A stretch of 54,878 bases of DNA from positions 1-54,878 of the forward strand of contig CAZYWA010000003.1 of the NCBI GenBank assembly GCA_964650975.1, written 5' to 3'. This stretch comes from an uncultured bacterium. GTDB taxonomy: Bacteria; JADJOY01. The position numbers and the translations under genes were made by a program. Below, piece after piece: positions 6,390 through 54,539 of the stretch (its first letter is position 1; each line of letters opens with the position of its first letter). The notes under the pieces are model-generated. The model had not been told where the DNA came from. It did no database searches and saw only the letters and a program-made list of their open reading frames with translations.

Positions 6390-7442
6390 ATGATGCAGCA
6401 TTCACGAAGGCTGACCAGCGCGTTGGTAGCAGCGCTCGCATTCGCGGCATGTGCTGCGTGCGGCGGCTCGGCCGGCGGCTCCTCCAGGTTCGTGCCGACC
6501 GACCCGGCGGTCGCGGGTCGCTATGCCGTGGTCGAGGGGACCGCCGAGCTCACCGTCGCCGGTTTCGGCACGTACGGAGCGCAGACCTACCTGCCTGCGG
6601 CGGTCGGGAGCGACGGGGGCACGGGCGCGACGCCTCCGGCACGGATGCCCGGCATCGTGTTGTCGAACGGCCTGGCCTCCCCGGGATCGGCCATGAGCTG
6701 GATCTCACGCCATCTCGCCAGTCATGGCTACGTCGTGCTCACGTTCACGCCGGCCAACACGCTTTCGCTCGACATGACCGAGTGGGCGGCCGGATTCCAG
6801 GGCGGCTTCGATGCGCTTCTTGGTGAGAGCTCGGACTCCGTCGGAGCGCTCGCCGGACGGGCGGACCCGGCGCGGATCGGCGCGGTGGCGCTCTCGGCGG
6901 GAGGCGCTGGAGCGATCGAGGCCGCCGGAAAGGACGCACGGGTGGCCGCGGTGGTCGCGTTCGCACCTGGGATCAACGATCTGGGCCGCTTCCTCTTCAA
7001 GGAGACGATCGACGCTTCCGCGCACGTCACGGCGCCCACGCAGATCCAGGTGGGCACCGAGGATTGCCTGGTGAATCCGCGCCCGCCGAGCCTGCTCGCG
7101 TTCACCAACCTCGGGCACACTAGCGTCGAGACGTACTACGACGCGATTCCTGCGCGGCGGCAGTTCCTGGAGATCGCCGGAGCCAATCACCTCGACTACA
7201 TGGACGAAGCGGCGGCGCAGCTCGCGGTCGAGTTGCTGGTCGACGCGATCCCGATCGACTGCGCGGCCAAGATCCCGACGGCCACGCAACACACCATCGC
7301 GCAGAAGTACGCGACGATGTGGCTCGACACCTACGTCTATGGCACCGGCGCATGGCAGGACTCGCTCTTCGGCGCGGGCGTCGCCGCCGACCTGACGGCG
7401 GGAGTCCTCACGCGAGTCCGGAGCGATCCGCCGTCCCCCTAG
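6390..7442 (+). CDS. secreted lipoprotein, cutinase/polyesterase-like alpha/beta hydrolase
   Basis: Signal plus lipobox ALAFAACAACGG. GIVLSNGLASPGSAMSWISRHLASHGYVVLTFTP and RIGAVALSAGGAGAIEAA, QVGTEDCLVNP, EIAGANHLDY align by eye with the Ser/Asp/His blocks of actinobacterial cutinase/PET-hydrolase-type enzymes. Confidence 0.75.
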   Translation: MMQHSRRLTSALVAALAFAACAACGGSAGGSSRFVPTDPAVAGRYAVVEGTAELTVAGFGTYGAQTYLPAAVGSDGGTGATPPARMPGIVLSNGLASPGSAMSWISRHLASHGYVVLTFTPANTLSLDMTEWAAGFQGGFDALLGESSDSVGALAGRADPARIGAVALSAGGAGAIEAAGKDARVAAVVAFAPGINDLGRFLFKETIDASAHVTAPTQIQVGTEDCLVNPRPPSLLAFTNLGHTSVETYYDAIPARRQFLEIAGANHLDYMDEAAAQLAVELLVDAIPIDCAAKIPTATQHTIAQKYATMWLDTYVYGTGAWQDSLFGAGVAADLTAGVLTRVRSDPPSP

Positions 7443-7454
7443 CGCCTCCGCGGT

Positions 7455-8456
7455 TCAGCGCTCCTGGAACGCCGGTAGAACGTGTTCCGCCAGCGCCTGG
7501 AGGGCGGCGAGCACGTCCGCCGCGGTGGAGCCCGAGATGCCCATGCGCAGCTCGTCGGCCCCGAGTGCCTGATAGGCGCGCGCGCGCCGCACGATCTCCT
7601 CCGGATCGGAGATCGAGACGCCTCCCTCGGGTGTCACGGCATGATGGATCCGCTTCGCTGGATCCGCTTGAATCGCGAAGCTCGCGCCCAGGCTGAAGCG
7701 GAATTGGGTCGAGTCGCGCCGGGCGGCGGCGAGCGCCTCGCGAACCCGCGGCACGAGCGTCGCGGCGCGCTCGGCGGTCATGGGACCCGCGATCCAGCCG
7801 TCGCCGATCCGCGCCGCGCGCTCGATGGCGGCGGCGCCGTGCCCGCCCACGTAGATCGGCGGGCAAGGCTTCTGGACGGGGCGCGGCTCCGGATGGACCG
7901 GCGGCAGCGTGTAGAAGCGCCCCTCGAACCCGACGCTGTCGCCAGGGGCCGTCCACAGCGCGCGCAAGAGCGCCACGTGCTCCTCCGCGCGCGCGCCGCG
8001 CTCGTCCCAGGGCATTTGCATGGCCAGTGCTTCCTCGCGAAGCCAGCCGGAGCCGACACCGAGCACCAGCCGTCCGCCCGAGTACACGTCGAGCGTCGCG
8101 AGCATGCGCGCGTGGAGCACCGGATTGCGCAGGGTCAGCACGGAGACGCTGGTTCCGAGGCGCGCGTGCCGGGTGAGGCCCGCCACGAACAGCAGCGTCG
8201 AGAGCTGCTCGTAGCTGGGAGCCATCCAGCGGTTGACCGTGCCGTCGGGCAACGACCGCGGCTTCTCGCCGAGCGGGTAAGGCGATTCGATGCGATCGGG
8301 GACGGCGAGGTGATCGACCGCCCACAGGCTCGCGAAGCCCAGCTGGTCCGCGTCCTGCGCGAAGTCGCGGACGAACTCGGCCGACGCGAGGGGGCCGATG
8401 TGGGGGAGGGTGAGGCCGATGCGCATGGTCGGGTCCGGCGAGGGCGAGCGAATCAT
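7455..8456 (-). CDS. LLM-class (luciferase-like) F420/flavin-dependent oxidoreductase
   Basis: MRIGLTLPHIG..FASLWAVDHL, TSVSVLTLRNPV, LVLGVGSGW blocks are typical of luciferase-like monooxygenase family proteins. Alternative start ATG 8426. Confidence 0.85.
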   Translation of the reverse strand: MIRSPSPDPTMRIGLTLPHIGPLASAEFVRDFAQDADQLGFASLWAVDHLAVPDRIESPYPLGEKPRSLPDGTVNRWMAPSYEQLSTLLFVAGLTRHARLGTSVSVLTLRNPVLHARMLATLDVYSGGRLVLGVGSGWLREEALAMQMPWDERGARAEEHVALLRALWTAPGDSVGFEGRFYTLPPVHPEPRPVQKPCPPIYVGGHGAAAIERAARIGDGWIAGPMTAERAATLVPRVREALAAARRDSTQFRFSLGASFAIQADPAKRIHHAVTPEGGVSISDPEEIVRRARAYQALGADELRMGISGSTAADVLAALQALAEHVLPAFQER

Positions 8457-36916: not shown

Positions 36917-36918
36917 TC

Positions 36919-36968
36919 GGGGGGCTTTTCAAGCCCCCCGCCCCGAAAAAAGTGCGATTTTTCGGGGC
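36919..36968. terminator. two abutting perfect hairpins between convergent genes (putative terminators)
   Basis: GGGGGGC-TTTTCAA-GCCCCCC (36919-36939) is followed immediately by GCCCCGAAAAA-AGTGCGA-TTTTTCGGGGC (36940-36968), starting 3 nt after the GH1 stop. No classical trailing U-tract. Confidence 0.45.
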
Positions 36969-37118
36969 CCCACCCCCGAGTCGGCTCGCTGCCCGCTCGC
37001 CGGCGCGCCTCCTGGCGCGCTGGCAAATTCGGGGTTACGACGCTGGCGAGCCCGGGTGCGCGTAGCGCGGGGGCTTGTCCCCCGTAGTCCCGTCGATCGA
37101 CTCGCTCACAAACTCTGA

Positions 37119-43113: not shown

Positions 43114-45837
43114 GTGCGGCGCGAGACCTGCATTCGCACCGTTCAGGGAGTCTGCGGTCCGCCGCTGGCGGCGGGCGCGTTCGACACCGCTGCGAGCGCC
43201 GTGGCACACAAATTCGACCTCAGCGATTTCGCTGACGACATCGACGCACCGACCCAGGTGATCGATACCGGCGCCTCGAGGGCGGGCGGCGCCGAGGATC
43301 CTCGCACGCTCGCCGGGTCGCTCGGCCTGGCGGAGCCGGAAGAACCGGAAGCACTCGAACGAGGGCCGTCGGGAACGTTCACCGAGGACTCGTTCGAGCC
43401 CGTCCCACCCGGCGCGGTCGTCTGGGGAAGCGGCTCCACGCCGCCGCTGCCCGAGGCGCCCGAGGACCGGCGTCTCGACGACGGCTGGCCGTGGCGAAAC
43501 GAGCCGGTCACGCCGGCTGGCGACGAAGCGGTCGTCGGCCCTCCGACCGGCGACCGCTCGTCGGGCCTGCTCCGGAAGTCGCAACAGCAGCAGCAACGCC
43601 GCCTGCCGGTCCACGGACCGCTGCTCGTTTCGCACGAGGGCGGCAAGCTGCGCATCCGGCTCAGGCTCTTGCTGCACGCGGTGGTCACGTCGGGAGTGGC
43701 GCTGGCGGTCGCGTCCGGCGCTTTCCTCTGGTACCAGACCACCAACGCGGAGCGCCGCACCGTCGAGAAGCTCTCGACGCTGGGGCGCGTGATCGGCTGG
43801 AGCGCGCGTGCCTCGCTGGCGCTCGAAGGTGTGTCGGACGCGCGCGCGCTGCCGGCGGCGCAGGTGGTCCTCGACGCGCTGGCGCAGGACCGCTCGATCC
43901 TGGAGGCGTGCCTCTTCACCTCCGACGGGCGGCTGGTGGCGAGCCACTTCCGCCACGACATCGACCTCAACGATCAGCGCTGCATTCCGCGCAGCGTCTC
44001 CCACGAGACCTACAGCCTGCGCGGCACCGAGATCTGGTGGGCGATGCCCCTCGAGTTCCAGGACCACGCCAACGGCACCATCGCGATCCTCGCGCAGACC
44101 ATCGTGCTGCACGAGGAGCTGGCGCGCTCCGGGATGATCGCGGCGATGGTCATGTGCGTCGCGGCCATGGTCGCGTTCGCCGCCACGGCGCGCTTCGAGC
44201 GAATGGTGTCGAGGCCGCTCCTGGCGCTCATCGACACCGCGCAGCACGTGACCCGGCGCAAGGATTACTCGGTGCGCGTGGCCGACGTGGGCGAGGACGA
44301 GTTCGGCGTCCTGATCGACACCTTCAACCGCATGCTGCAGCAGATCCAGGTGCGCGATCGCGAGCTCGAGCGGCAGCGCGACCAGATGGGCAAGGAAGTG
44401 CAGGCGCGCCGCGCCGAGCTGCGCAGCCGCGAGCAGGCCGAGGAGCGAATCCGCTATCTCGCCTACTACGACGTGCTCACGGGGCTTCCCAACCGGCAGT
44501 GCTTGAAGGAGCGCCTCGACCAGAGCCTCCGCGAGGCGAACCGCCATGGCGGTCACGTCGGGGTGCTATTCGTGGACCTCGACCGCTTCAAGGAGATCAA
44601 CGACAACTTCGGCCACGGCGAAGGCGACCGGCTGCTCCGGCTGGTCGCGGAGCGCGTGGTGGGCTGCGTGCGCGGCTCGGACGCGGTGTCGAGGTCCACC
44701 ACCGGGCATCCATGCTTCACCGTCTCGCGGCAGGGCGGCGACGAGTTCGCGGTGCTGCTGACGCGGCTGCGCTCGCGCGCCGACGCCTCGCGGATCGCGG
44801 AGCGGATGCTGGGCGAGCTCCGGAAACCGTTCTCGCTGGCGGGACGCGAGGTGCGCGTGGGAGCGAGCATCGGCATCGCCGTCTCTCCCGGCGACGGCGG
44901 CGACGTCGAGACCATGCTCAAGCACGCCGACATGGCGATGTACCAGGCCAAGCAAGCGGGCCGTGACTCGTTCGAGTTCTTCTCGCCGTCGATGGGCGAG
45001 GACGCCATGCGCCGGCTGGACCTGGGCACCGACTTGAGGCGCGCCATCGAGTGGGCCGACTTCAAGGTTCACTACCAGCCGAAGGTGGATCTGCACGACG
45101 GCGCGGTCACCGGGCTCGAGGCGCTGGTGCGCTGGGAGCACCCCACCCGCGGCTTCATCTCACCCGCGGACTTCATCCCGCTGGCGGAGGATCTAGGCCT
45201 GATCGGCACGCTCGGCACCTGGGTGCTCACCACGGTGTGCGCGCAGATGCGGACCTGGCTCAACGCGGGCCTGCCGCCGGTGCGGGTGGCGGTGAACGTG
45301 TCGAGTCATCAGTTCGCCGATCCGCATCTCTACGACACCGTGCGCAGCGCACTTCTCGAAGTGGGGCTGCCGCCCGACGTGCTGGAGCTCGAGATCACCG
45401 AGAGCGCCATGATCCAGAATCCGGAGGGAGCGGTCGCGACGCTCGAATCGCTGCGGGCCCTCGGCATCCAGGTGGCGCTCGACGACTTCGGTACCGGCTA
45501 CTCGTCGCTCAACTACGTCGGCCGGCTGCCGCTCGACGCGCTCAAGATCGACCGCTCGTTCGTCAACGCGATCGCGGACAGCGAGGACGGCCGCAGCATC
45601 GTCACGGCGGTCATCGCCATGGCGCACAGCCTGGGTCTCAGGGTCGTCGCGGAAGGTGTCGAGACGCCGGAGCAGGCGAAGGTGCTGCGGCGCCTGCGCT
45701 GCGACGAGATCCAGGGCTACCTCTTCAGCCGCCCGGTCCCGCCCGACAAGGTCGCGAGCCTCCTCACCTCGCGCCTCGACCTCGACCAGTACTCGCTCTC
45801 GGTCCCGCTGCCGATGGTCTCCGAGCTGGTGATGTAG
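43114..45837 (+). CDS. GGDEF-EAL signalling protein with periplasmic CHASE8-like sensor and HAMP
   Basis: TM1 (AVVTSGVALAVASGAFLWY), a ~130-aa periplasmic segment, TM2 and a HAMP-like region (ALIDTAQHVTRRKDYSVRVADVGEDEFGVLIDTFNRML). GGDEF (RQGGDEFAVLL). EAL (LEALVRWEH, ELEITES, DDFGTGYSSL, KIDRSF, EGVE). The start is uncertain (GTG 43114, GTG 43201 or later); the first ~170 aa are Pro/Glu-rich. Confidence 0.85.
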   Translation: MRRETCIRTVQGVCGPPLAAGAFDTAASAVAHKFDLSDFADDIDAPTQVIDTGASRAGGAEDPRTLAGSLGLAEPEEPEALERGPSGTFTEDSFEPVPPGAVVWGSGSTPPLPEAPEDRRLDDGWPWRNEPVTPAGDEAVVGPPTGDRSSGLLRKSQQQQQRRLPVHGPLLVSHEGGKLRIRLRLLLHAVVTSGVALAVASGAFLWYQTTNAERRTVEKLSTLGRVIGWSARASLALEGVSDARALPAAQVVLDALAQDRSILEACLFTSDGRLVASHFRHDIDLNDQRCIPRSVSHETYSLRGTEIWWAMPLEFQDHANGTIAILAQTIVLHEELARSGMIAAMVMCVAAMVAFAATARFERMVSRPLLALIDTAQHVTRRKDYSVRVADVGEDEFGVLIDTFNRMLQQIQVRDRELERQRDQMGKEVQARRAELRSREQAEERIRYLAYYDVLTGLPNRQCLKERLDQSLREANRHGGHVGVLFVDLDRFKEINDNFGHGEGDRLLRLVAERVVGCVRGSDAVSRSTTGHPCFTVSRQGGDEFAVLLTRLRSRADASRIAERMLGELRKPFSLAGREVRVGASIGIAVSPGDGGDVETMLKHADMAMYQAKQAGRDSFEFFSPSMGEDAMRRLDLGTDLRRAIEWADFKVHYQPKVDLHDGAVTGLEALVRWEHPTRGFISPADFIPLAEDLGLIGTLGTWVLTTVCAQMRTWLNAGLPPVRVAVNVSSHQFADPHLYDTVRSALLEVGLPPDVLELEITESAMIQNPEGAVATLESLRALGIQVALDDFGTGYSSLNYVGRLPLDALKIDRSFVNAIADSEDGRSIVTAVIAMAHSLGLRVVAEGVETPEQAKVLRRLRCDEIQGYLFSRPVPPDKVASLLTSRLDLDQYSLSVPLPMVSELVM

Positions 45838-45890
45838 CTGCCTCGCGCGAGAGGCCGCCTTCCTTCGAGCCACGGCAACGACAGTCGGAG

Positions 45891-45910
45891 GGCTGCGGTC
45901 CCTCGCAGCC
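45891..45910 (+). repeat. GTCCCT-loop hairpin, copy 1 (stem GGCTGCG/CGCAGCC)
   Basis: ggctgcg-gtccct-cgcagcc. It is embedded in a 33-nt block (45882-45914) identical to 53187-53219. Confidence 0.85.
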
Positions 45911-45958
45911 GCAGGGGACGAGCTCGTCGATGAGCCGGAAAGAGGCTTCCGTTGGCGC

Positions 45959-45978
45959 GCCACCGGTCCCTCGGTGGC
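45959..45978 (+). repeat. GTCCCT-loop hairpin, copy 2 (stem GCCACCG/CGGTGGC)
   Basis: gccaccg-gtccct-cggtggc. It is the exact reverse complement of 54213-54232. Confidence 0.85.
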
Positions 45979-46048
45979 GAGGAGCCGATCGACCGCGCTG
46001 AGTGTCCGGGCGCGGGCCTGCTAGGCTCGCGGCGGGGAGCGCGCGCGG

Positions 46049-46759
46049 GTGAGCGAGCGGAAGTTCGATTCGAGCTACCGGGAATCGCTGACGCTCCGGG
46101 ACGGCGGCGAGGTCGAGCTGCGTCTGGTGCAGCGCGAGGACCGCGAGCTGCTGGAGCGCGGGTTCGAGAAGCTCTCCGATCGCTCGCGGTATCTGCGCTT
46201 CTTCACCGCGAAGCCGCACCTCACCGCGGCCGAGGTGAGCTACCTGACCGACGTCGACGGCGAGACCCACTTCGCGATCGGCGCCTCGCGCCGCGGCGCC
46301 AGCGGCGTGGAGGAGGGAGTGGCGGTCGCGCGTTTCATCCGCCTGCCGGTCGAGCCCGAGGTCGCGGAGGCGGCGGTCACGGTGCTCGACGAGATGCAGG
46401 GGAAGGGTCTGGGCAGTGTGCTGTTGCTGCGCCTCATCGCCGCGGCCCGCGAGCGCGGAGTGCGGGCGTTCCGCTGCTGGCTGCTCGCCGAGAACCGCGA
46501 CATGCAGGCGCTGATCCACGAGTGGTTGCCCGGCGCCCACGAGCGTCTGGAAGGAGCCGAGCTGGTGATCGACGCGCCGTTGCCGGAGGTCGGCCCGGCC
46601 GAGCCCACCAGCACGCGCCCCGTGGACCATCCGCTCTATCGCATGCTGCGCCACGCCGCTTCGGGAGCGGTGACGGTGCTCGGGCTCGGGCGATGGATTC
46701 CGGGAGCCCACCCGGCGCCCGAGACGGATCCGCCGGCCTCACGGTCGGGCGAGGGTTGA
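46049..46759 (+). CDS. GNAT-family N-acetyltransferase
   Basis: RYLRFF motif and acetyl-CoA loop EMQGKGLGSVLLLRLIAAARERGV (Q/RxxGxG/A). GTG start. Confidence 0.8.
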   Translation: MSERKFDSSYRESLTLRDGGEVELRLVQREDRELLERGFEKLSDRSRYLRFFTAKPHLTAAEVSYLTDVDGETHFAIGASRRGASGVEEGVAVARFIRLPVEPEVAEAAVTVLDEMQGKGLGSVLLLRLIAAARERGVRAFRCWLLAENRDMQALIHEWLPGAHERLEGAELVIDAPLPEVGPAEPTSTRPVDHPLYRMLRHAASGAVTVLGLGRWIPGAHPAPETDPPASRSGEG

Positions 46760-46837
46760 GCCGCTCGATGCGTGGTGTAGGATTCGCGCACGGCGGTCAC
46801 CTACCGGCAGGCAGGTAGGCGTCGACGGGGGGCGAGG

Positions 46838-48361
46838 ATGGCGCTCGATCGATCCGTGCAAGCGCTTGGCGCGGCCGCGCTCCTCGCGACGGTCCTTAGC
46901 AGTTGCGGCGATTCCTCGGGAGGCGCTCATCCCGGTGGGGGCGGCGGGCCGTACGGCAGCGCTTATCTCGCCGAGGATCCGCAAGAACCGGGCGACCCGG
47001 TGGCGGGCCGCGACACGCTGCTCAACGGCGCCTACATGACGTGCGGGATCCCGTTCAAGATCGTGGGCAATCCGCTGGTCGCGCCGTTCCTGCAGACCTC
47101 GTCCGGCGACGCGGCGAAGCCGGTGGCCGGACGCAACGCGCACAACCGCCGGCTTCCCAACTCGCTCAACGCGTTCACGGCGCCCAACGGCGCCGAGGTG
47201 GTGAACTCGAACTGCCTCACCTGTCACGGCGGCGTCTTCGACGGCCAGTTCATCGTGGGGCTCGGCAATCCGGCCACCGACTGGACGTTCCACCTCGACA
47301 TGCCGTCCACGGACCTGCCGCCCAGCCCGCTCGACCTGCTGGGGCTCGACGCCGCGGAGCAGGAGAATCTCGACCGCATGTTCCACGCCGCGCGAGCGCT
47401 CTCCGCGACCTGGATGCGCACCGTCGGCAACAACCCGGCGGAGATCACCGCCGTGGTGCTGATGGCGCATCACGACCGCGAGACGCTGGCCTGGAGCGAC
47501 GAGCTGCTGACACCCCTCGAGCCGCGCGACGCCAACGGCCAGCCGATGTCGCTCGACCAAGCGCGCGTCACGTCGGACCCGCCGCCCTGGTGGCGCGCCC
47601 ACAAGAAGCACGCGCTCTTCTACAACGGCATGGCGCGCGGCGATCACCGCGGCACCATGGCGCTCGCCACCTCGGTGTGCGTCGACGACGTGCCGCAGGC
47701 GCGGCGCGTCGACGGCATGTTCAAGGACATCCAGGCCTTCATCAACACCATCCAGGCTCCGCATTATCCGCGCGCCATCGATCACGATCTGGCTGGAGAG
47801 GGAAGGGCGATCTTCGAGCAGAGCTGCTCGACCTGTCACGGCACCTACGCCAACGATCCCGACGACGACGCTCACGACACCTATCCCAATTTGCTCTTCC
47901 CGCTAGACGTGATCGGCACCGATCCGGTGGTCGCGAACGCGGGCGTGATCCACGCTCCCGAGCTGGTGAGCTGGTACAACAGCTCGTTCTACGGCTCGAT
48001 CACCCGCATGACTCCCGACGATCCGTTTCCCGGCTACATGGCGCCGCCGCTCGACGGCATCTGGGCCACCGCGCCGTATTTCCACAACGGCTCGGTTCCC
48101 ACCGTGGAGCTGGTGCTCAACAGCACTGCGCGGCCGAAATACTGGAAGCGCGTCGACTACGACACCACCCACTACGACGAGGAGGCGCTCGGCTGGCCGT
48201 GGGTGTCGGTGCCTTACTCGCAGGCCGAGGCACCTGACTCCGAGAAGAAGTACATCTACGACACCACCTACTGGAGCCAGTCGAACGGCGGCCACACCTT
48301 CGGCGACCGGCTGACTCCGGACCAGCGCCGCGCGGTGATCGAGTATTTGAAGACGCTGTGA
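46838..48361 (+). CDS. di-haem c-type cytochrome lipoprotein (cytochrome c peroxidase/MauG-like)
   Basis: Lipobox LLATVLSSCG. Two CxxCH sites (NCLTCHGG, SCSTCHGT). PPLDGIWATAPYFHNGSVPTVELVL resembles the conserved PY.HNG block of di-haem peroxidases. Confidence 0.65.
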   Translation: MALDRSVQALGAAALLATVLSSCGDSSGGAHPGGGGGPYGSAYLAEDPQEPGDPVAGRDTLLNGAYMTCGIPFKIVGNPLVAPFLQTSSGDAAKPVAGRNAHNRRLPNSLNAFTAPNGAEVVNSNCLTCHGGVFDGQFIVGLGNPATDWTFHLDMPSTDLPPSPLDLLGLDAAEQENLDRMFHAARALSATWMRTVGNNPAEITAVVLMAHHDRETLAWSDELLTPLEPRDANGQPMSLDQARVTSDPPPWWRAHKKHALFYNGMARGDHRGTMALATSVCVDDVPQARRVDGMFKDIQAFINTIQAPHYPRAIDHDLAGEGRAIFEQSCSTCHGTYANDPDDDAHDTYPNLLFPLDVIGTDPVVANAGVIHAPELVSWYNSSFYGSITRMTPDDPFPGYMAPPLDGIWATAPYFHNGSVPTVELVLNSTARPKYWKRVDYDTTHYDEEALGWPWVSVPYSQAEAPDSEKKYIYDTTYWSQSNGGHTFGDRLTPDQRRAVIEYLKTL

Positions 48362-48395
48362 CGCGGGCGAGCCCCGGATTCCCGCGCCCTGCGTC
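48360..48395 (+). terminator. bulged hairpin immediately after the cytochrome gene
   Basis: GACGCGGGCG-(loop)-CGCCC(t)GCGTC overlaps the stop codon and is followed by tggtttc. Confidence 0.35.
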
Positions 48396-48407
48396 TGGTT
48401 TCACCGC

Positions 48408-48445
48408 GGAAATGGGGATATTTCGCGGGAAATGCCGCGATTTCC
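48408..48445. promoter_or_regulatory. two tandem GGAAAT-N6-ATTTC(C) palindromes (candidate operator) in a low-GC intergenic region
   Basis: GGAAAT ggggat ATTTC (48408-48424) and GGAAAT gccgcg ATTTCC (48428-48445), 20 nt centre to centre. Further TGAAATCGAT repeats at 48454 and 48478 include the perfect palindrome AAATCGATTT. Confidence 0.5.
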
Positions 48446-48567
48446 GCGTTGTGTGAAATCGATTTGTTACACCCAAATGAAATCGATCCGTGACGAAATG
48501 TGGTGGCGATGAGTGACGCATCGCGCTGCCACGTAGTAACCGACGGACGAGGACGCCGGAGGGCGCC

Positions 48568-49008
48568 GTGACCGAGGTCATCGGGCTCGATCACCTCTAC
48601 CTGACGGTCTCCGATCTGGCGGTCTCGGAGCGCTTCTACGACCGGGTGTGCTGCTCGGTGCTGGGCTTCCGCAAGAACGCGTTTCCCATCGACGGCGATC
48701 CACACGTCCAGTACTTCAATCGCCACTTCGGGATCGTGCTGCGGCCGGCGCGCCGCGCGGCGGCTCACGATCCTTACTCGCCTGGGCTCCATCACCTGTG
48801 CCTGCGCGTCGAGAGCGCCGACGACGTGCACGCGGCGGCGCGCGCCCTGCGCGAGGCCGGGGTGGACGCAAGCGAGCCGCGCGTCTATCCCGAGTACGCG
48901 CGGGACTACGTCGCGACGTTCTTCTCCGACCCCGACGGCATCCGCCTCGAGATCACCAACTACCGCGCCGAGCGCCGTCGCAGGCACGACCACTGGCCGA
49001 GCGAGTGA
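48568..49008 (+). CDS. VOC (glyoxalase/bleomycin-resistance/dioxygenase) family protein
   Basis: VIGLDHLYLTVSDLAVSERFY.., PGLHHLCLRV, FFSDPDGIRLEI, a typical paired beta-alpha-beta-beta-beta module. GTG start. Confidence 0.85.
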   Translation: MTEVIGLDHLYLTVSDLAVSERFYDRVCCSVLGFRKNAFPIDGDPHVQYFNRHFGIVLRPARRAAAHDPYSPGLHHLCLRVESADDVHAAARALREAGVDASEPRVYPEYARDYVATFFSDPDGIRLEITNYRAERRRRHDHWPSE

Positions 49009-49016
49009 AGGAGCGC

Positions 49017-49970
49017 ATGGGACTCTTCGATCGATTCCGGTCCGGGAAAAGCGAAGCGGAGCCCAAGCTCGCGGTGCCGTCGTGGGCGTCGTTCTTCGAT
49101 GCGGAGGAGTACCGCGAGTTCCTCGAGGACGTGCGGCGGTCGCTCGCCGCTCCCGGCACCACGCTCGAGTTCGGCGACGGTGTCGTGATGGTCACGCGCA
49201 ACGGCTCCACGACCCGGTGTGGGCTACAGAACCTCGCACAGCGCTGCCGCGCGACTCCTCGGCCGAAGTGGCCGCAGGCGATGACCGACCACTTCCGCAC
49301 CAGCGCCCCGTCGCAGGCGAGCCTGGACGAGTTCCGCGAGCGGATCCGCGACTTCGCAAACGTCCGCGAGATCCTCAAGCTCAGGATCTACCCCCACGAG
49401 TACGTCGAGCAGGGGATCGACGTCGTCCACTGGTATCTGGCGCCCGGGCTCGTGGCGGTGCTGACCTACGACCTCCCCGAGACGGTGGCCACCGTGCACG
49501 TCGAGCACCCCAAGAGCTGGCCGCTCGACCGGGACGGCCTCTACCAGCTGGGCCTCGAGAATCTCGCCCACGAGCGCCTCGCGGCGCTCGAGCAGGTGAA
49601 GGTGAAAGGCACGATCGAGTTCACCGTGCTGGGCGGCGAGAGCTTCTTCACGTCGAGCCAGGTGCTGCGTCTCGACGAGCTGATGACCTCCCTTCCGTCG
49701 CAGGGCGCGATCGTCGCGCTGCCTCACCGTCACGCGCTCATGGCTTTCCCGATTCGCGACGGGTCGGTGGGCGTGGCGATTCCGCTGATGGCGCAGATGG
49801 CGGCGGGGATGTACAAGAAAGGCCCGGGCTCGGTCACCCCGAACGTCTACTGGTGGCGCGAGGAGCGACTGGTTCACATTCCGGTGTCGATCGGACCGAA
49901 GGAGATCGCGGTGATTCCGCCGCTCGAATTCGCCGACATGCTCGGCACACTCGGTCGCCTGCCGGTCTGA
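49017..49970 (+). CDS. hypothetical protein (no family recognised)
   Basis: ATG 49017 preceded by GAAGGAG. High third-position GC and non-artefactual composition (MGLFDRFRSGKSEAEPKLAVPSWASFFDAEEYREFLEDVRR..). Confidence 0.65.
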   Translation: MGLFDRFRSGKSEAEPKLAVPSWASFFDAEEYREFLEDVRRSLAAPGTTLEFGDGVVMVTRNGSTTRCGLQNLAQRCRATPRPKWPQAMTDHFRTSAPSQASLDEFRERIRDFANVREILKLRIYPHEYVEQGIDVVHWYLAPGLVAVLTYDLPETVATVHVEHPKSWPLDRDGLYQLGLENLAHERLAALEQVKVKGTIEFTVLGGESFFTSSQVLRLDELMTSLPSQGAIVALPHRHALMAFPIRDGSVGVAIPLMAQMAAGMYKKGPGSVTPNVYWWREERLVHIPVSIGPKEIAVIPPLEFADMLGTLGRLPV

Positions 49971-50073
49971 TCGCCGCGCCGTTCGTCATGAGTGCCGAGC
50001 GCCCCACCGGACCGAGCACCACGCCCACGGCGCCGGTGGCCGCTTAGCTCGAAGGCCGCTGGCGCCGCCGCGG

Positions 50074-50268
50074 GTGTCGCTCGCTGATCGCGCCGGCTTG
50101 GTGGCGGTCGCGGTGGTCATGGTGTTCTTGGTGCTTCTCTATGCCGCGACCGTGGCGGGTGTCGCGGCGGCGCTCGCCTGGCACGCGGTGAACGGGCGGG
50201 GGTATTCGTGGCGCTGGTGGCGCCGCTCACGATGGGTCGCGCGCGGGGTGCTCAGGCGAGCGAGCTGA
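50074..50268 (+). CDS. possible small membrane protein (64 aa)
   Basis: One hydrophobic helix (LVAVAVVMVFLVLLYAATVAGVAAALAW) followed by a Trp/Arg-rich tail, with high GC3. No homology recognised. Confidence 0.25.
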   Translation: MSLADRAGLVAVAVVMVFLVLLYAATVAGVAAALAWHAVNGRGYSWRWWRRSRWVARGVLRRAS

Positions 50269-50466
50269 CCGCCCGGGTGCAGCGCGATCGCGTGACCTTC
50301 GAGGCGCAGATCGCCGCGGCGGAGGCCGGAGATCGACAGCGCAAGTCGGCCTGGTGGCGCTCGGTCCGGCGGCGCAGATCCGACGCCGGCAAGTCGAGGA
50401 CCGGTTCATGTCGATGACGAATCCCCTGGGAGACCCCGCCTCGGCGGCCCGCTCGCCTCGCAGCGG

Positions 50467-50679
50467 GTGCCCTCGATCCCGATGGTCGACGACGTGAAAG
50501 GCGTGGCGCAGGCGGTTCGCGAGATCCGCCTCCGTCTCGTCGCGTTCCGGACCCGGCTCATCGGCGAGCTGGTGCCGATCGCGGAAGCGGTGGAGCAGGC
50601 CCTGGGCTTCGACGCGGCGCCCGAGGCCGATGACGGCGACGCCGAGCCGGTCGAGCCAGATTCGCTCGCACCAGCGTGA
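50467..50679 (+). CDS. possible small acidic protein (about 65-70 aa)
   Basis: High GC3 and plausible helical sequence (VAQAVREIRLRLVAFRTRLIGELVPIAEAVEQAL) with an acidic tail. Its stop overlaps GTG 50676 of the next ORF as GTGA. Confidence 0.3.
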   Translation: MPSIPMVDDVKGVAQAVREIRLRLVAFRTRLIGELVPIAEAVEQALGFDAAPEADDGDAEPVEPDSLAPA

Positions 50680-51275
50680 AACGCTACGATGGGCCGACCA
50701 TGAGCGAGCCTGTCCGTCACCACCGCTACACGTTTCGCGAATACGTCGAGCTCGAGGAACGCGCGAACGTCCGGCACGAGTTTTTGGACGGCGAGATCTG
50801 TGCGATGGCGGGCGGCACGCCTGAGCACGCCGCGCTTTCGATGGCGGTTGGCGGTGCTCTCTTGAATTCGCTCCGAGGTAGCAACTGCCGGGTTTTCAGC
50901 TCGGACTTGAGCGTCCGGGTGCAGGCGACCGGACTCGCCACCTATCCAGACGTTTCGGTGGTGTGCGGCGACCTGGCGCGAGATCCCGAGAGCGCGGTCA
51001 CGATCACCAATCCGAAGCTGGTGGTCGAGGTAACGAGCGACAGCACCGAGAGCTACGAGCGCGGTGAAAAGCTGGCGCACTACCACAAGATCCCTTCCCT
51101 CGACGCGGTGCTGATCGTGTCGCACCGAGAGCGCCGTCTCGACCTGTGGTCTCGTGGAGCGGACGGTGCCTTCTCTTCGGTCACGGCGCTCGGGGGTGCG
51201 TCGGTTTCGATTCCCTCGATCGGCACGACCCTCGACGTCGACCTGCTCTACGGCGATCTGCTGAAGCTCGCGTAG
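50676..51275 (+). CDS. Uma2-family (DUF820) PD-(D/E)xK endonuclease-like protein
   Basis: YTFREYVELEERANVRHEFLDGEICAMAGGTPEHAAL, YPDVSVVCG, PKLVVEVTSDST..EKLAHY match the Uma2 pattern (D..EVxS/K). ATG 50700 (MSEPVRHHRYTF) is the alternative and perhaps better start. Confidence 0.8.
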   Translation: MKRYDGPTMSEPVRHHRYTFREYVELEERANVRHEFLDGEICAMAGGTPEHAALSMAVGGALLNSLRGSNCRVFSSDLSVRVQATGLATYPDVSVVCGDLARDPESAVTITNPKLVVEVTSDSTESYERGEKLAHYHKIPSLDAVLIVSHRERRLDLWSRGADGAFSSVTALGGASVSIPSIGTTLDVDLLYGDLLKLA

Positions 51276-51323
51276 CGCGCAGCTCTTCCGCGGGGCGACT
51301 GCATCGGCCAGATTTCCGCCGCC

Positions 51324-51968
51324 ATGGTGTGCGGCACGTTTCGGCGCTGGCTCGCTGGCCCCCAGATGTGGGAGCGCGAGATTCGTGCCTTCGAGCGGGC
51401 CGATCGGCGCGATCCTCCCCGGCCCGGCCAGATCCTCTTCACGGGCAGCTCGAGCATCCGCTTCTGGTCCTCGCTCGCCGACGACATGCGCCCTCTCGCG
51501 GTGGTGAATCGCGGCTTCGGCGGCGCTCACGCGGCGCACGTCACGCACTTTGCACCCCGCATCGTGTTCCCGCAGCGGCCGCGCGCCATCGTGCTCTACG
51601 CCGGCGACAACGACCTCGGCCGGCTGAGCCCGCGCACGCCGCGCACGGTGGTCGAGGACTTCCGCGCGTTTCGCGAAGCCGTGCGTGCGCGGCTGGGCGA
51701 GGTACCGCTCTACGTGCTGTCGATCAAGCCGACGCCGCTTCGCGAGCGGCAATGGCCGCGGATGGAGCAGGCCAACGAAGGGCTCGCGGCCTTCGCGGAG
51801 CAGGAGAAGAACGTGCACTTCGTCGACGTGTCGTCACCGATGTTCGACCAACGCGGCCGGCCGCGCCGCGACCTCTATCGCTGGGATGGCTTGCACCTGA
51901 ATGACGCCGGCTACCGGTTGTGGACTGGCATCGTGAAGCCTCGATTGGTCGCGGATCTCGGCACGTGA
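51324..51968 (+). CDS. SGNH/GDSL-family hydrolase
   Basis: ILFTGSSSIRFW (block I Ser), NRGFGG (block II), YAGDNDL (block III), DGLHLNDAGY (block V Asp-x-x-His). Confidence 0.85.
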   Translation: MVCGTFRRWLAGPQMWEREIRAFERADRRDPPRPGQILFTGSSSIRFWSSLADDMRPLAVVNRGFGGAHAAHVTHFAPRIVFPQRPRAIVLYAGDNDLGRLSPRTPRTVVEDFRAFREAVRARLGEVPLYVLSIKPTPLRERQWPRMEQANEGLAAFAEQEKNVHFVDVSSPMFDQRGRPRRDLYRWDGLHLNDAGYRLWTGIVKPRLVADLGT

Positions 51969-53116
51969 GCCTCCACCAGCCCACCGTCGACGAGCTCTTC
52001 GAGTCGGCCGCCACGTTCGTCGGCGCGGGCAAGCTGCCGTCGTTGCAGCTCGCGGTCGCTCGCGACGGCGCCGTGGTCGCGAGGCGGGCCTTCGGCCGCG
52101 CTCGCTCGGGCGACGCCGTGCGCGACGCCGACGACGCGACGCTCTACAACGCGTTCTCGGCCACCAAGGCGATCGTGTCGTCGGCTGTATGGCTGCTCTG
52201 GCAGGACGGCAAGCTCGACTTCGCCGAGCCGGCGGCGAACGCGATCCCGGAATTCGCGACCAACGGCAAGGAAGCGGTCACCATCCAGCACTTGCTGACG
52301 CACACCGCCGGCTTCCCCATGGCTCCGTTCTCGCCGCTCGACTGGGACGATCGCGAGCGACGGCTCGAACGATTCCGCCGCTGGCGCCTCGACTGGGAGC
52401 CGGGCAGCCGTTTCGTCTACCACCCGACGGCCACGTTTTGGGTGCTCGCGGAGGTGATCGAGCGCCGCGCCGGCATGGATTTCCGCGCGTTCGTGCGCGA
52501 GCGGATCCTGACGGCGCTCGGTCTCGACCGGCTCTTTCTCGGCCTTCCAGCCGAGCAGAATGCACGCGTGGCCGACATCGAGTACGTGGGCGAGCCGCCC
52601 GATCGCGAGCGGCTGCGCGACCTCGGCATCTCGCCGATCCTCACCGACGACGAGAAGTACTTCGTGGCCTACAACCGGCCCGAGATCCGCGCCGTCGGCG
52701 GACCGGGCAGCGGCGCCGTGACCAGCGCCTCGTCGCTGGCGCTCTTCTATCAGGGACTGCTCCACGATCTCGTCGCTCCCGACGGCGAGCACCGCGTGTG
52801 GCGCCCGGCGACCATCGCCAGGGCGCTCGAGGTCGTGACCGGCCACCTGATCGATCCCATGACGCGGCGCCCGGCGCATCGCGGACTCGGTGTGACGATC
52901 GCCGGCGATCATGAGCGCGTCTACCGGAGCTTCGGCTCGGCCAACTCGCCGCGCGCCTTCGGCCACGCGGGCGCCGGCGGCCAGATCGCCTGGGCCGATC
53001 CAGAGAGCGGTCTTTCGTTCGTGTGCCTGACCGACGGTTTCGATCGCGACGTGATCCGGCTCGGCATGCGCGGCGTGGTGCTGTCCTCGCTCGCGGCGTC
53101 GTGCGTCGCGAGCTGA
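51965..53116 (+). CDS. serine hydrolase, beta-lactamase/esterase (class C-like) family
   Basis: SxxK nucleophile FSATKAIVSSAVWLL, YHP (Tyr block), HAGAGGQIAWADP (KTG-equivalent region). The GTG start overlaps the SGNH stop as GTGA. Confidence 0.8.
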   Translation: MSLHQPTVDELFESAATFVGAGKLPSLQLAVARDGAVVARRAFGRARSGDAVRDADDATLYNAFSATKAIVSSAVWLLWQDGKLDFAEPAANAIPEFATNGKEAVTIQHLLTHTAGFPMAPFSPLDWDDRERRLERFRRWRLDWEPGSRFVYHPTATFWVLAEVIERRAGMDFRAFVRERILTALGLDRLFLGLPAEQNARVADIEYVGEPPDRERLRDLGISPILTDDEKYFVAYNRPEIRAVGGPGSGAVTSASSLALFYQGLLHDLVAPDGEHRVWRPATIARALEVVTGHLIDPMTRRPAHRGLGVTIAGDHERVYRSFGSANSPRAFGHAGAGGQIAWADPESGLSFVCLTDGFDRDVIRLGMRGVVLSSLAASCVAS

Positions 53117-53127
53117 GCGAGGAACCG

Positions 53128-54195
53128 ATGGCGACAAAGACGGCGGCGGCGCGACCGAAGCGGAGCGGCGCGAAAGCCAAAGCTCGCAGTCGGAGGGCTG
53201 CGGTCCCTCGCAGCCGCAGCACTTCATCGCGATCGAGCGCCGCGGACGCGAAGGACCGCGTCCCGCCGAGGACGAGGGACCAGGTCCATCGAAAGACGAA
53301 GGAGCGCGCGCGCCCGAAGAAACGCGTCGGCCTGGTCGACGCCTGGGCCGACGCGATCCGCCGCGAGGTCGCGCGCCCCGCGTTCCAGCGCGATCCCGAG
53401 TTCCTGAAGAAGCTCCTGCCGCTGATGGAGCTGTGGGGCCGCTACTTCGATGCCGAGGTGCGCGGCTGGGAGAACGTGCCGTCGAAGGGGCCGATGATGC
53501 TGGTCGGCAACCACTCGGGCGGAATGCTCACTCCCGATACGTCGGCGGTGATGGCCGGCTGGTATCGCGAGCGCGGCCTCGACGAGCCGCTCATCGGCCT
53601 CGCGTTCGACTCGGCGTTCGGCATCCCCGGCTTCCGCGACCTGATGCGCAAGATCGGTCAGGTGCCGGCCAACTGGCAGAACGTCGGCAAGGCGCTCGAC
53701 GAGGGCGCCGCGGTGCTGGTCTATCCGGGCGGCGTCCACGAGGTGTACCGGCCGTGGAAGGATCGCGACAAAGTCGACTTCGGCGGGCACAAGGGCTTCA
53801 TCCGCGTGGTGCTCGAGAAGCGGGTGCCGGTGGTGCCGATCGTCGGCCACGGCGGGCACCACACGCTGATGGTGCTCACCCGCGGGGAAAAGCTCGCCAA
53901 GCTCTTCCGGATGGAGCGGCTGCGGATGAAGGAGTATCCGATCCTGCTGCAGATCCCGTGGGGAGTGTCGACACCGGCGTTCCCGGGAGTGCCGCTGCCC
54001 GCGAAAGTGACGGTGCAGATCCTGAAGCCCATCGACTGGCGGAAGCTGAGCCCGAAGGCGGCGCAGGATCCGGCGGTGATCGACCGCTGCTACGCCGAGA
54101 TCACCGGCAAGATGCAGCAGGCGATGGACGCGCTCGCGAAAGAAACGCCGCACCCGATCCGCGCGCGGCTCAAGCGGCTGGTCCGGCGAAGCTGA
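53128..54195 (+). CDS. LPLAT-superfamily acyltransferase (MGAT/DGAT2-like) with basic N-terminal tail
   Basis: MLVGNHSGGMLTPD, VLVYPGGVHEV, VPVVPIVGHGGHHT blocks. ATG 53128 (GAGG RBS) is the only canonical in-frame start upstream of the conserved region, which places hairpin copy 3 inside codons about 20-30. Confidence 0.75.
   Translation: MATKTAAARPKRSGAKAKARSRRAAVPRSRSTSSRSSAADAKDRVPPRTRDQVHRKTKERARPKKRVGLVDAWADAIRREVARPAFQRDPEFLKKLLPLMELWGRYFDAEVRGWENVPSKGPMMLVGNHSGGMLTPDTSAVMAGWYRERGLDEPLIGLAFDSAFGIPGFRDLMRKIGQVPANWQNVGKALDEGAAVLVYPGGVHEVYRPWKDRDKVDFGGHKGFIRVVLEKRVPVVPIVGHGGHHTLMVLTRGEKLAKLFRMERLRMKEYPILLQIPWGVSTPAFPGVPLPAKVTVQILKPIDWRKLSPKAAQDPAVIDRCYAEITGKMQQAMDALAKETPHPIRARLKRLVRRS
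53196..53215 (+). repeat. GTCCCT-loop hairpin, copy 3 (stem GGCTGCG/CGCAGCC), intragenic
   Basis: ggctgcg-gtccct-cgcagcc within the 33-nt block 53187-53219, identical to 45882-45914. Confidence 0.85.
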
Positions 54196-54212
54196 CCGCG
54201 ATCGCGCGTTTC

Positions 54213-54232
54213 GCCACCGAGGGACCGGTGGC
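54213..54232 (-). repeat. GTCCCT-loop hairpin, copy 4 (inverted; stem GCCACCG/CGGTGGC)
   Basis: The plus strand reads gccaccg-agggac-cggtggc. Confidence 0.85.
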
Positions 54233-54307
54233 GCCCCGGGGGAAGACGGCATTCCTGTGGAACGTGGCGTTCGGATCGCGAATCGCTGCCGCGATCGGCC
54301 GTTGGAG

Positions 54308-54329
54308 CGCGCGCGGTCCCTCGCGCGCG
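54308..54329 (+). repeat. GTCCCT-loop hairpin, copy 5 (stem CGCGCGCG)
   Basis: cgcgcgcg-gtccct-cgcgcgcg. The 5' flank ccgttgg(a)gcgc resembles the flank of copy 2. Confidence 0.8.
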
Positions 54330-54424
54330 AGCGTTCAACCGCCGTGAGCCCGGTCCGAGCGCGTCTCGAGGCGCGCCGGCGGCGGCACCCAACTGGCGCT
54401 GGTGATCGAAGGACCGGTCGCGTT

Positions 54425-54446
54425 CGACCGGACGTGCGTCCGGTCG
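54425..54446. repeat. perfect 22-nt palindrome
   Basis: cgaccggacg-tg-cgtccggtcg lies in the same hairpin-dense intergenic region. Confidence 0.8.
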
Positions 54447-54467
54447 ATGGACGCGATCGTGCGCTTC

Positions 54468-54487
54468 GGCTGCGAGGGACCGCAGCC
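54468..54487 (-). repeat. GTCCCT-loop hairpin, copy 6 (inverted; stem GGCTGCG/CGCAGCC)
   Basis: The plus strand reads ggctgcg-agggac-cgcagcc. 54464-54493 is the reverse complement of the 33-nt block with one mismatch over 30 nt. Confidence 0.85.
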
Positions 54488-54513
54488 CTCCGAAGGCTGC
54501 TTGCTGTTCGGAG

Positions 54514-54533
54514 GGACGCGGTCCCTCGCGTCC
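54514..54533 (+). repeat. GTCCCT-loop hairpin, copy 7 (stem GGACGCG/CGCGTCC)
   Basis: ggacgcg-gtccct-cgcgtcc. Relative to copies 1/3 the stem carries paired (compensatory) substitutions CT>AC and AG>GT. It ends 6 nt from the stop of the convergent gene. Confidence 0.85.
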
Positions 54534-54539
54534 GAGGCG

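Follow-up and report, generated by a model that had tools for sequence, protein, structure and literature searches.

What are the hairpins with the loop GTCCCT that occur between positions 45882 and 54539 of contig CAZYWA010000003.1, which comes from an uncultured bacterium (GTDB lineage Bacteria; JADJOY01; assembly GCA_964650975.1)? The whole stretch that was analysed, called the window here, comprises 54,878 nt of the forward strand; it is a chromosomal stretch with 70% GC which carries ordinary metabolic genes, and its sequence is also present in the ENA metagenome assembly ERZ27245402. The original prediction described seven hairpins with an invariant GTCCCT loop (AGGGAC when inverted) on covarying stems. 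As classical repetitive extragenic palindromes (REPs) were taken to conserve the stem, it was proposed that the hairpins may represent an undescribed class of elements. According to our analysis, they are very likely copies of a family of intergenic palindromic repeats of the REP and bacterial interspersed mosaic element (BIME) type, resembling the REP doublets called REPINs. The family is new within the known REP/BIME/REPIN kind and is not a new class of elements.

The copies found in the window are as follows (all hairpins are perfect unless stated otherwise):

45882..45939, plus strand: solo REP unit with the tag TCGGAG (45885-45890), the hairpin GGCTGCG-GTCCCT-CGCAGCC (45891-45910) and a tail of about 29 nt; 43.5 bits with the covariance model

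45954..45979, plus strand: copy with an 8-bp stem and the degenerate tag GGCG; hairpin CGCCACCG-GTCCCT-CGGTGGCG (45958-45979)

53187..53272, plus strand: tail-to-tail, REPIN-like pair consisting of a direct copy at 53192-53215 (GGAG GGCTGCG GTCCCT CGCAGCC; hairpin 53196-53215), a 28-nt spacer and an inverted degenerate copy at 53244-53267 (GGACGCG AAGGAC CGCGTCC, tag CGCC; hairpin 53244-53263); 43.5 and 28.3 bits, respectively

54212..54237, minus strand: inverted copy with an 8-bp stem; hairpin CGCCACCG-AGGGAC-CGGTGGCG (54212-54233), degenerate tag GGGG on the minus strand

54304..54329, plus strand: direct copy with an 8-bp stem; GGAG plus CGCGCGCG-GTCCCT-CGCGCGCG (hairpin 54308-54329); 26.2 bits

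54462..54539, plus strand: head-to-head, REPIN-like pair consisting of an inverted copy at 54468-54491 (GGCTGCG AGGGAC CGCAGCC CTCC; hairpin 54468-54487), an 18-nt spacer and a direct copy at 54510-54533 (GGAG GGACGCG GTCCCT CGCGTCC; hairpin 54514-54533); 42.3 and 42.7 bits, respectively

The full list of perfect window hairpins contained all seven of the GTCCCT-loop hairpins described originally, with the same stems and orientations. Of the 57 perfect window hairpins whose 6-nt loop is closed by 6 bp or more, 7 have this loop. The 100% identity of the 33-nt blocks 45882-45914 and 53187-53219, the exact reverse complementarity of 45958-45979 and 54212-54233, and the inverted/direct/inverted/direct alternation of the four copies in 54196-54539 were confirmed as well. 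The eighth, degenerate inverted copy, the GGAG tag 5' of the stem, the 3' tail and the arrangement in pairs had been overlooked. The tag, which has the form (T/C)GGAG in the window copies, lies immediately 5' of the stem. Two subfamilies can be distinguished in the window. Four copies and the degenerate one have 7-bp stems of the type GG-NNN-CG and the tag TCGGAG; the other subfamily has the 8-bp stem CGCGCGCG or CGCCACCG and the flank CCGTTGGAG or CCGTTGGCG.

The similarity of the copies extends into their flanks. The tails 3' of the hairpin are shared (55 nt at 84%, 42 nt at 88%) and have the motif CGCGATCG in common. A 55-nt segment of the solo unit is 84% complementary to 54439-54493, 33 nt comprising the copy 45954..45979 with its flanks are 79% identical to 54299-54331, and 35 nt comprising the inverted copy 54212..54237 are 89% complementary to 45946-45980. 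The arms of the head-to-head pair 54462..54539 are 85% complementary, and as single-stranded DNA the whole pair forms a single long hairpin (-36.9 kcal/mol, z = -6.8). The four canonical copies scored 42-43 bits with the covariance model, the CGCGCGCG copy 26 bits and the two CGCCACCG copies 14 bits (14.4 for 45954..45979); the model was made from members with 7-bp stems, and its E-values are rough. A further match at 7497-7523 (19 bits), which lies in a coding sequence and has a different loop, was treated as chance.

The design of the hairpin became apparent from loci retrieved from metagenome-assembled genomes (MAGs) and metagenomes, mostly through the GTCCCT loop and chosen stems (about 1.1 Mb in total; loci are designated by L numbers). 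The family consensus reads yT-GGAG, a stem of 7-8 bp (mostly GG-NNN-CG), N-TYY-N'-T, the return stem and G. GGAG was found directly 5' of the stem in 165 of the 186 perfect N-TYY-N'-T hairpins in the window and the loci, and GTAG in a few. The loop GTCCCT is constant locally, as originally described, whereas the GGAG-tagged hairpins of the wider family also have the loops CTCCGT, CTTTGT, ATCCTT, CTCTGT, CTTCGT and GTCTCT. T is invariably present at loop positions 2 and 6, pyrimidines occupy positions 3 and 4, and positions 1 and 5 are complementary (G:C, C:G or A:T). The GGAG tag, these two T residues and the two pyrimidines are what is conserved, not the hexamer as such. Pairing of the tag (GAGGG) with the loop (CCCTC; 54511-54527) was considered as another reason for loop conservation and rejected because the loops CTTTGT and ATCCTT cannot pair in this way.

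Covariation was assessed with an alignment of 38 distinct members picked regardless of the loop 1:5 pair, from which the covariance model was also made. Pairing was present in 97.4% of cells, compared to 74% in shuffles, and changes on both sides were found in seven of the eight pairs; the signal was lost when the partner columns were slid. The hairpin is thus retained through compensatory changes, and the selection on structure suggested in the original prediction is borne out. The loop 1:5 pair was CG in 18 members, GC in 16, AU in three and UG in one, and it was unpaired in none. Since positions 1 and 5 covary, the structure consists of a stem of 7-8 bp, a bulged T on the 3' side, one further pair and a 3-nt loop T-Y-Y. 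G-U pairs were scarce (2 of 304 cells) and no commoner than other mismatches, which fits the need for Watson-Crick pairing on whichever strand is read.

A search for GGMYGCGGTCCCTCGCRKCC with one genome per species provided at least 63 loci. Among the matches listed, MAGs with multiple copies are labelled Planctomycetaceae (CAYXPN01, CAYSAG01), Deltaproteobacteria (JADJOY01), Chthoniobacterales (DASZHC01, DATMQC01), Verrucomicrobiota (CAZZKQ01) and unclassified bacterium (CAYMQR01); the taxonomy of MAGs in this study is that of the record titles. The GC content of these carriers ranges from 54% to 73%, and nearly all true copies in the matches listed carry GGAG as the tag, with G following the stem. 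Many copies lie at extreme contig ends or adjoin N runs, as expected, because repeats break assemblies. In the Verrucomicrobiota MAG CAZZKQ01 (L028, L060), the identical stem-loop occurs with GTAG replacing GGAG. GTAG-tagged hairpins of the same loop design were also found in the Deltaproteobacteria MAG, and some GTAG hairpins occur in L020 and L037.

An unbiased scan of metagenomes was done with the pattern GGAGN{5,6}CGGTCCCTCG, in which all positions except the tag, the loop and the closing CG pairs are left free. The result was bimodal: 108 matches had stems of 2-5 bp, corresponding to chance, and 25 had stems of exactly 7 or 8 bp. Six different stems were present in the latter group (GGCTGCG, GGCTACG, GGCGCCG, GGCCACG, GGACGCG and CGCGCGCG). 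The window pair 53187-53272, including its spacer, has counterparts with 82-85% identity on four further contigs (L106, L181, L077 and L045), and a hairpin identical to that of the copy 54304..54329, with similar flanks, is present in L106 and L186. Shared tags, tails and pair spacers indicate the copying of a DNA unit, and the copies are related by descent. An empty site was sought by comparing L077 with the window; just a block of about 100 nt was found in common, and the genes were not. A viral origin of the repeats was rejected, as a single solitary copy was found among 2.9 million viral contigs.

Neighbouring copies in the loci are arranged tail to tail (TT, 39 cases), head to head (HH, 28) or head to tail (HT, 30), and singles also occur. 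Arrays are present in L005, L006, L021, L033 and L059, among them alternating ones such as L005 1-250 with a period of 72 nt. According to crude gene calls based on GC content at the third codon position (GC3), 143 of the 152 copies in the loci lie outside predicted coding sequence, and by the same calls the host intergenic regions are convergent in 11, co-directional in 18 and divergent in two cases. The orientation of the copies in relation to transcription is unbiased (22 same, 29 opposite). No target-site duplication was visible at five aligned pairs. No T-run follows the hairpin of any copy, and the terminator scan called no hairpin of the family. In the Planctomycetaceae MAGs, head-to-tail tandem arrays with periods of 30-52 nt were observed (L006 1076-1167, L033 3553-3676, L044 3627-3891, L021 7157-7441); these arrays are often broken by N runs, so the assemblies are unreliable there. 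Some copies in the Chthoniobacterales MAGs (L062 1249-1890, L050 7836) have GCGG or CGGG instead of GGAG, and these belong to units which repeat every 306-316 nt and adjoin the simple repeat TTCTGTCTTCTGTCTTC.

All eight window copies are intergenic. The first two (45882..45939 and 45954..45979) are located downstream of a GGDEF-EAL gene (43114-45837) and before a GNAT gene. The pair 53187-53272 lies between a beta-lactamase-like gene (51920-53116) and an acyltransferase gene (approximately 53287-54195), and the remaining four copies occupy the convergent gap 54196-54539.

These properties correspond closely to those of published repeats. Tagged REPs are hairpins 20-40 bp in size that bear a GTAG or CGTC tag at a terminus; the tag may be degenerate at positions 2-3, and 24 GTAG families were surveyed by Di Nocera et al. 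2013 (PMC3733652). REP families are split by alternative complementary stem residues, some loop sequences are common across species, and REPs form HH, TT and HT dimers and clusters downstream of open reading frames (ORFs); they were found in Rhodopirellula baltica and Opitutus terrae, and several families may occur per genome (PMC3733652). The present family shares with the GTAG REP/BIME elements (E. coli REP/BIME, Stenotrophomonas SMAG) a hairpin 20-40 nt in length, one end of which carries a 4-nt tag, alternative-stem subfamilies, unpaired residues at the loop edge, and the occurrence as singles, HH/TT/HT dimers and clusters. The location after ORFs in convergent or co-directional regions, the presence in Planctomycetes and Verrucomicrobia and the coexistence of several families in a genome are further common features. 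The general characteristics of REP/BIME elements were thus all found: the repeat is multi-copy (eight copies in 9 kb of the window), extragenic and arranged in dimers and arrays, and its stems differ by complementary changes. Since the family has all these structural and positional features of REP/BIME elements, it is not an undescribed class. The argument that classical REPs conserve the stem does not hold, as alternative complementary stems have already been described for REP families (PMC3733652).

The sequence of the family seems to be new. The degenerate tags listed for GTAG families are GYAG, GYRG, GTRG, GTMG and GTGG, and GGAG is not among them (PMC3733652). The family sequence is absent from that paper and its supplements, and when full-text literature was searched for the core 12-mer of both strands, the one paper retrieved dealt with mammalian repair and was unrelated. 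The Rfam search suggested in the original prediction gave no match in the window at the gathering score, and for two regions searched with E-values up to 10 only chance-level matches were obtained. In contrast to GTAG REPs, about 89% of copies carry GGAG as the tag, and a RAYT gene (RAYT, REP-associated tyrosine transposase) flanked by the repeats (a REPtron) was not found.

REPINs are REP doublets forming hairpins (Bertels and Rainey 2011, via PMC3733652). As far as they are characterised there, the window pairs agree with them in that an inverted pair and its conserved spacer form one unit, which recurs at several loci and folds as a long hairpin with imperfect pairing. The differences from REPINs as outlined in this source are that both TT and HH arrangements occur, that singles and HT neighbours reach about the frequency of inverted pairs, and that a cognate RAYT was not found. 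The pairs 53187-53272 and 54462-54539 are REP doublets of this type, and we infer that they replicate as units.

How such units could spread may be deduced by analogy with E. coli REP/RAYT and the IS200/IS605 insertion sequences (IS). The strand carrying GGAG would fold as single-stranded DNA, and a RAYT-type Y1 (HUH) transposase would recognise the tag together with the unpaired T and the loop, cut and rejoin the DNA. Cutting and rejoining of this kind would spread single units and pairs and expand arrays. Once transcribed, the inserted hairpins may also stabilise 3' ends, a role that has been suggested for other REPs. The subterminal hairpins of IS200/IS605 elements (IS608, ISDra2) resemble the present ones in having an unpaired base and no target duplication and, by analogy, in being probably read on one strand. 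IS608 TnpA recognises an extrahelical T in imperfect palindromes, and bases 5' of the hairpin foot select the cleavage site. In contrast to IS200/IS605, no tnpA or tnpB lies between the copies, which greatly exceed IS ends in number and are much shorter than these. For REPs, pairing of the unpaired loop-edge residues abolishes cleavage (PMC3733652). Of the candidates named in the original prediction (an RNA-binding protein, a RAYT-like enzyme or a terminator factor), the RAYT-like enzyme is, judged by these analogies, the best-supported mechanism, although no cognate RAYT flanked by GGAG copies was found. The chances that a RAYT mobilises the GGAG family appear to be roughly even.

Several results weigh against the assignment to REP/BIME elements. 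The hairpins are not strict members of the GTAG superfamily, as their tag is GGAG; its position is the same, and bases 1, 3 and 4 agree. RAYT genes are flanked by their own REPs (PMC3733652), whereas no RAYT with an intact catalytic tyrosine (Tyr) flanked by GGAG copies was detected in the window, in the loci or around the RAYT homologues with DNA. The sole RAYT-like gene adjoining GTCCCT hairpins (L186) is devoid of the catalytic Tyr, and no GTCCCT hairpins were found nearby at the orthologous sites in L193 and L185. Moreover, the way in which the loci were retrieved biases the copy numbers and loop frequencies, and the locus gene calls, based on GC3 only, are crude.

The search for the transposase was done by a motif scan and phmmer over all window and locus ORFs, which detected Y1_Tnp genes in L005 only. 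No genes bracketed by inverted GGAG copies were found in the window or the loci, and among the six of ten RAYT homologues for which DNA was available, none with the catalytic Tyr was flanked by GGAG copies. L005, which belongs to a Deltaproteobacteria MAG, was retrieved for its hairpins alone and carries two Y1_Tnp genes. The product of the second (7235-7711) has both HUH and Tyr, and this gene is flanked on both sides (7186-7208 and 7718-7741) by another REP, GTAGC GCGGGGG CTCGT CCCCCGC. The other Tyr-bearing RAYTs, P0025 and P0037 (the latter from the Deltaproteobacteria MAG), each have GTAG REPs of their own in their flanks and serve as positive controls for the method. A textbook REPtron was observed on a metagenome contig (L190 1916-2807; also L191 and L192), where the gene of RAYT P0025 has copies of GTAGGC CAGGGC TTYA GCCCTG in its flanks, two upstream and five downstream.

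The REP which flanks the L005 RAYT gene is also represented in the window:

37062..37085, plus strand: single copy of a further REP family with the tag GTAG, GTAGC GCGGGGG CTTGT CCCCCG; exact pattern match, 0.02 expected

This GTAG family was found in L004 and L040 as well. As the REP flanking the L005 RAYT gene is present in the window, the lineage of the window possesses two or more REP families and is a relative of that MAG.

The first Y1_Tnp gene of L005 (4554-5066) is located between imuA and imuB, and in its product and the orthologues Glu replaces the catalytic Tyr. This arrangement of a Tyr-less RAYT-like gene between imuA (RecA-like) and imuB (IMS domain) is kept in L005 3725-8000, L193 1671-4606 and L186 71-1115, and in L005 a complete REPtron is present also between imuB and dnaE2 (PHP domain). 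In L186-L188, a head-to-head pair of GTCCCT hairpins with the stems CGCGCGCG and GCCCACCG lies between the Tyr-less gene and imuB; the ENA accession numbers of these assemblies are near that of the window's assembly. RAYT-type genes inside a damage-inducible mutagenesis cassette may merit separate study. A bolder suggestion, which we consider unlikely, is that the GGAG/N-TYY-N'-T hairpins form a third REP superfamily beside GTAG and CGTC, common to MAGs labelled Planctomycetaceae, Verrucomicrobiota/Chthoniobacterales and Deltaproteobacteria. Such a superfamily would be served by an unrecognised RAYT clade or in trans by the Tyr-less RAYT-like protein of the imuA-imuB-dnaE2 cassette; in the latter case, repeat mobility would be tied to the SOS response.

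Among the alternatives to a mobile REP/BIME-type family, the one that survives best supposes that the hairpins work mainly in RNA, as 3'-end stabilisers, attenuators or sites for RNA-binding proteins, and are not mobile DNA. Copies indeed lie 3' of genes and have stable GC-rich stems, REPs of other bacteria are reported to act in this way (PMC3733652), and such a role is compatible with a REP/BIME origin. As the main function it is nevertheless improbable. There is no orientation bias in relation to flanking genes (22 against 29), inverted pairs put the versions of both strands into any transcript, G-U pairs are rare, an Rfam match is missing, and the common tags, tails and spacers indicate the copying of DNA units. 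The missing T-run and terminator-like calls also argue against a function in RNA. A Rho-independent terminator, with which the copies share a GC-rich hairpin 3' of a gene, was rejected since the T-run is missing after every copy; the occurrence in both orientations and in repeated units with a common tag and tail further distinguishes the family from such terminators.

The pairs could also be miniature inverted-repeat transposable elements (MITEs) mobilised by a DDE transposase which recognises the terminal inverted repeats TCGGAGGG...CCCTCCGA. Terminal inverted repeats with a conserved interior and the presence of the same unit on several contigs would agree with this. We regard it as very unlikely, given the lack of visible target-site duplications at the five aligned pairs and the fact that singles, HT pairs and short-period arrays occur as often as inverted pairs. 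The stems covary and their sequence is not kept, which is disfavoured for a transposase binding double-stranded DNA, and in the window and loci no DDE transposase recurs beside the copies and no parent IS was seen.

Palindromic operators for a regulator or nucleoid protein binding double-stranded DNA would likewise be palindromic, GC-rich, repeated and intergenic. This explanation is hardly tenable because the arm sequence is free to vary while pairing is kept, the asymmetric centre is conserved on one strand, and only 2 of the 31 classified regions are divergent, i.e. of the promoter type.

Chance GC-rich palindromes of a 70% GC genome might be invoked because perfect hairpins with a stem of at least 7 bp are many in the window (126 entries) and because the hexamer GTCCCT/AGGGAC is not enriched (22 sites vs 25 expected), but this notion is refuted by the metagenome scan, the covariation, the identical flanks common to copies, the same units in unrelated contigs and MAGs, and the finding of at least seven complementary flanking bases at 7 of the 22 hexamer sites, where 0.004 were expected from base composition.

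Other repeats and unusual segments were observed in the window. The palindrome mentioned in the original prediction as a 22-nt one in the region of the last four copies was located:

54424..54447, strand not assigned: near-perfect 24-nt palindrome TCGACCGGACG TG CGTCCGGTCGA with 11 pairs around the central TG, in the same convergent gap

It was excluded from the family, having neither the GGAG tag nor the N-TYY-N'-T loop; a second hairpin (54414-54431) overlaps it. A block of about 100 nt at 36917-37019 contains two hairpins with A/T-rich loops and tails (CGGGGGGCTTTTCAAGCCCCCCG; GCCCCGAAAAA...TTTTTCGGGGC). It is 90% identical to L077 2406-2505 with different flanking genes and has no Rfam match at the gathering score; possible identities are a small RNA gene, a bidirectional terminator module and a further type of repeat. 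The stretch 49009-51276 lacks ORFs with a GC3 signal as strong as that of the neighbouring genes, and the ORFs 49082-50047 (plus strand) and 50406-51818 (minus strand) are without a Pfam match.

The covariance model and the consensus obtained here can be used to mask or annotate a repeat that breaks the assemblies of high-GC MAGs from soil and wastewater. The known range of REPs is extended by the GGAG tag and by a clearly resolved design with a bulged T and a 3-nt loop. A RAYT would be expected to read the unpaired T and the tag position, and the family thus represents a natural variant for tests of RAYT target choice.

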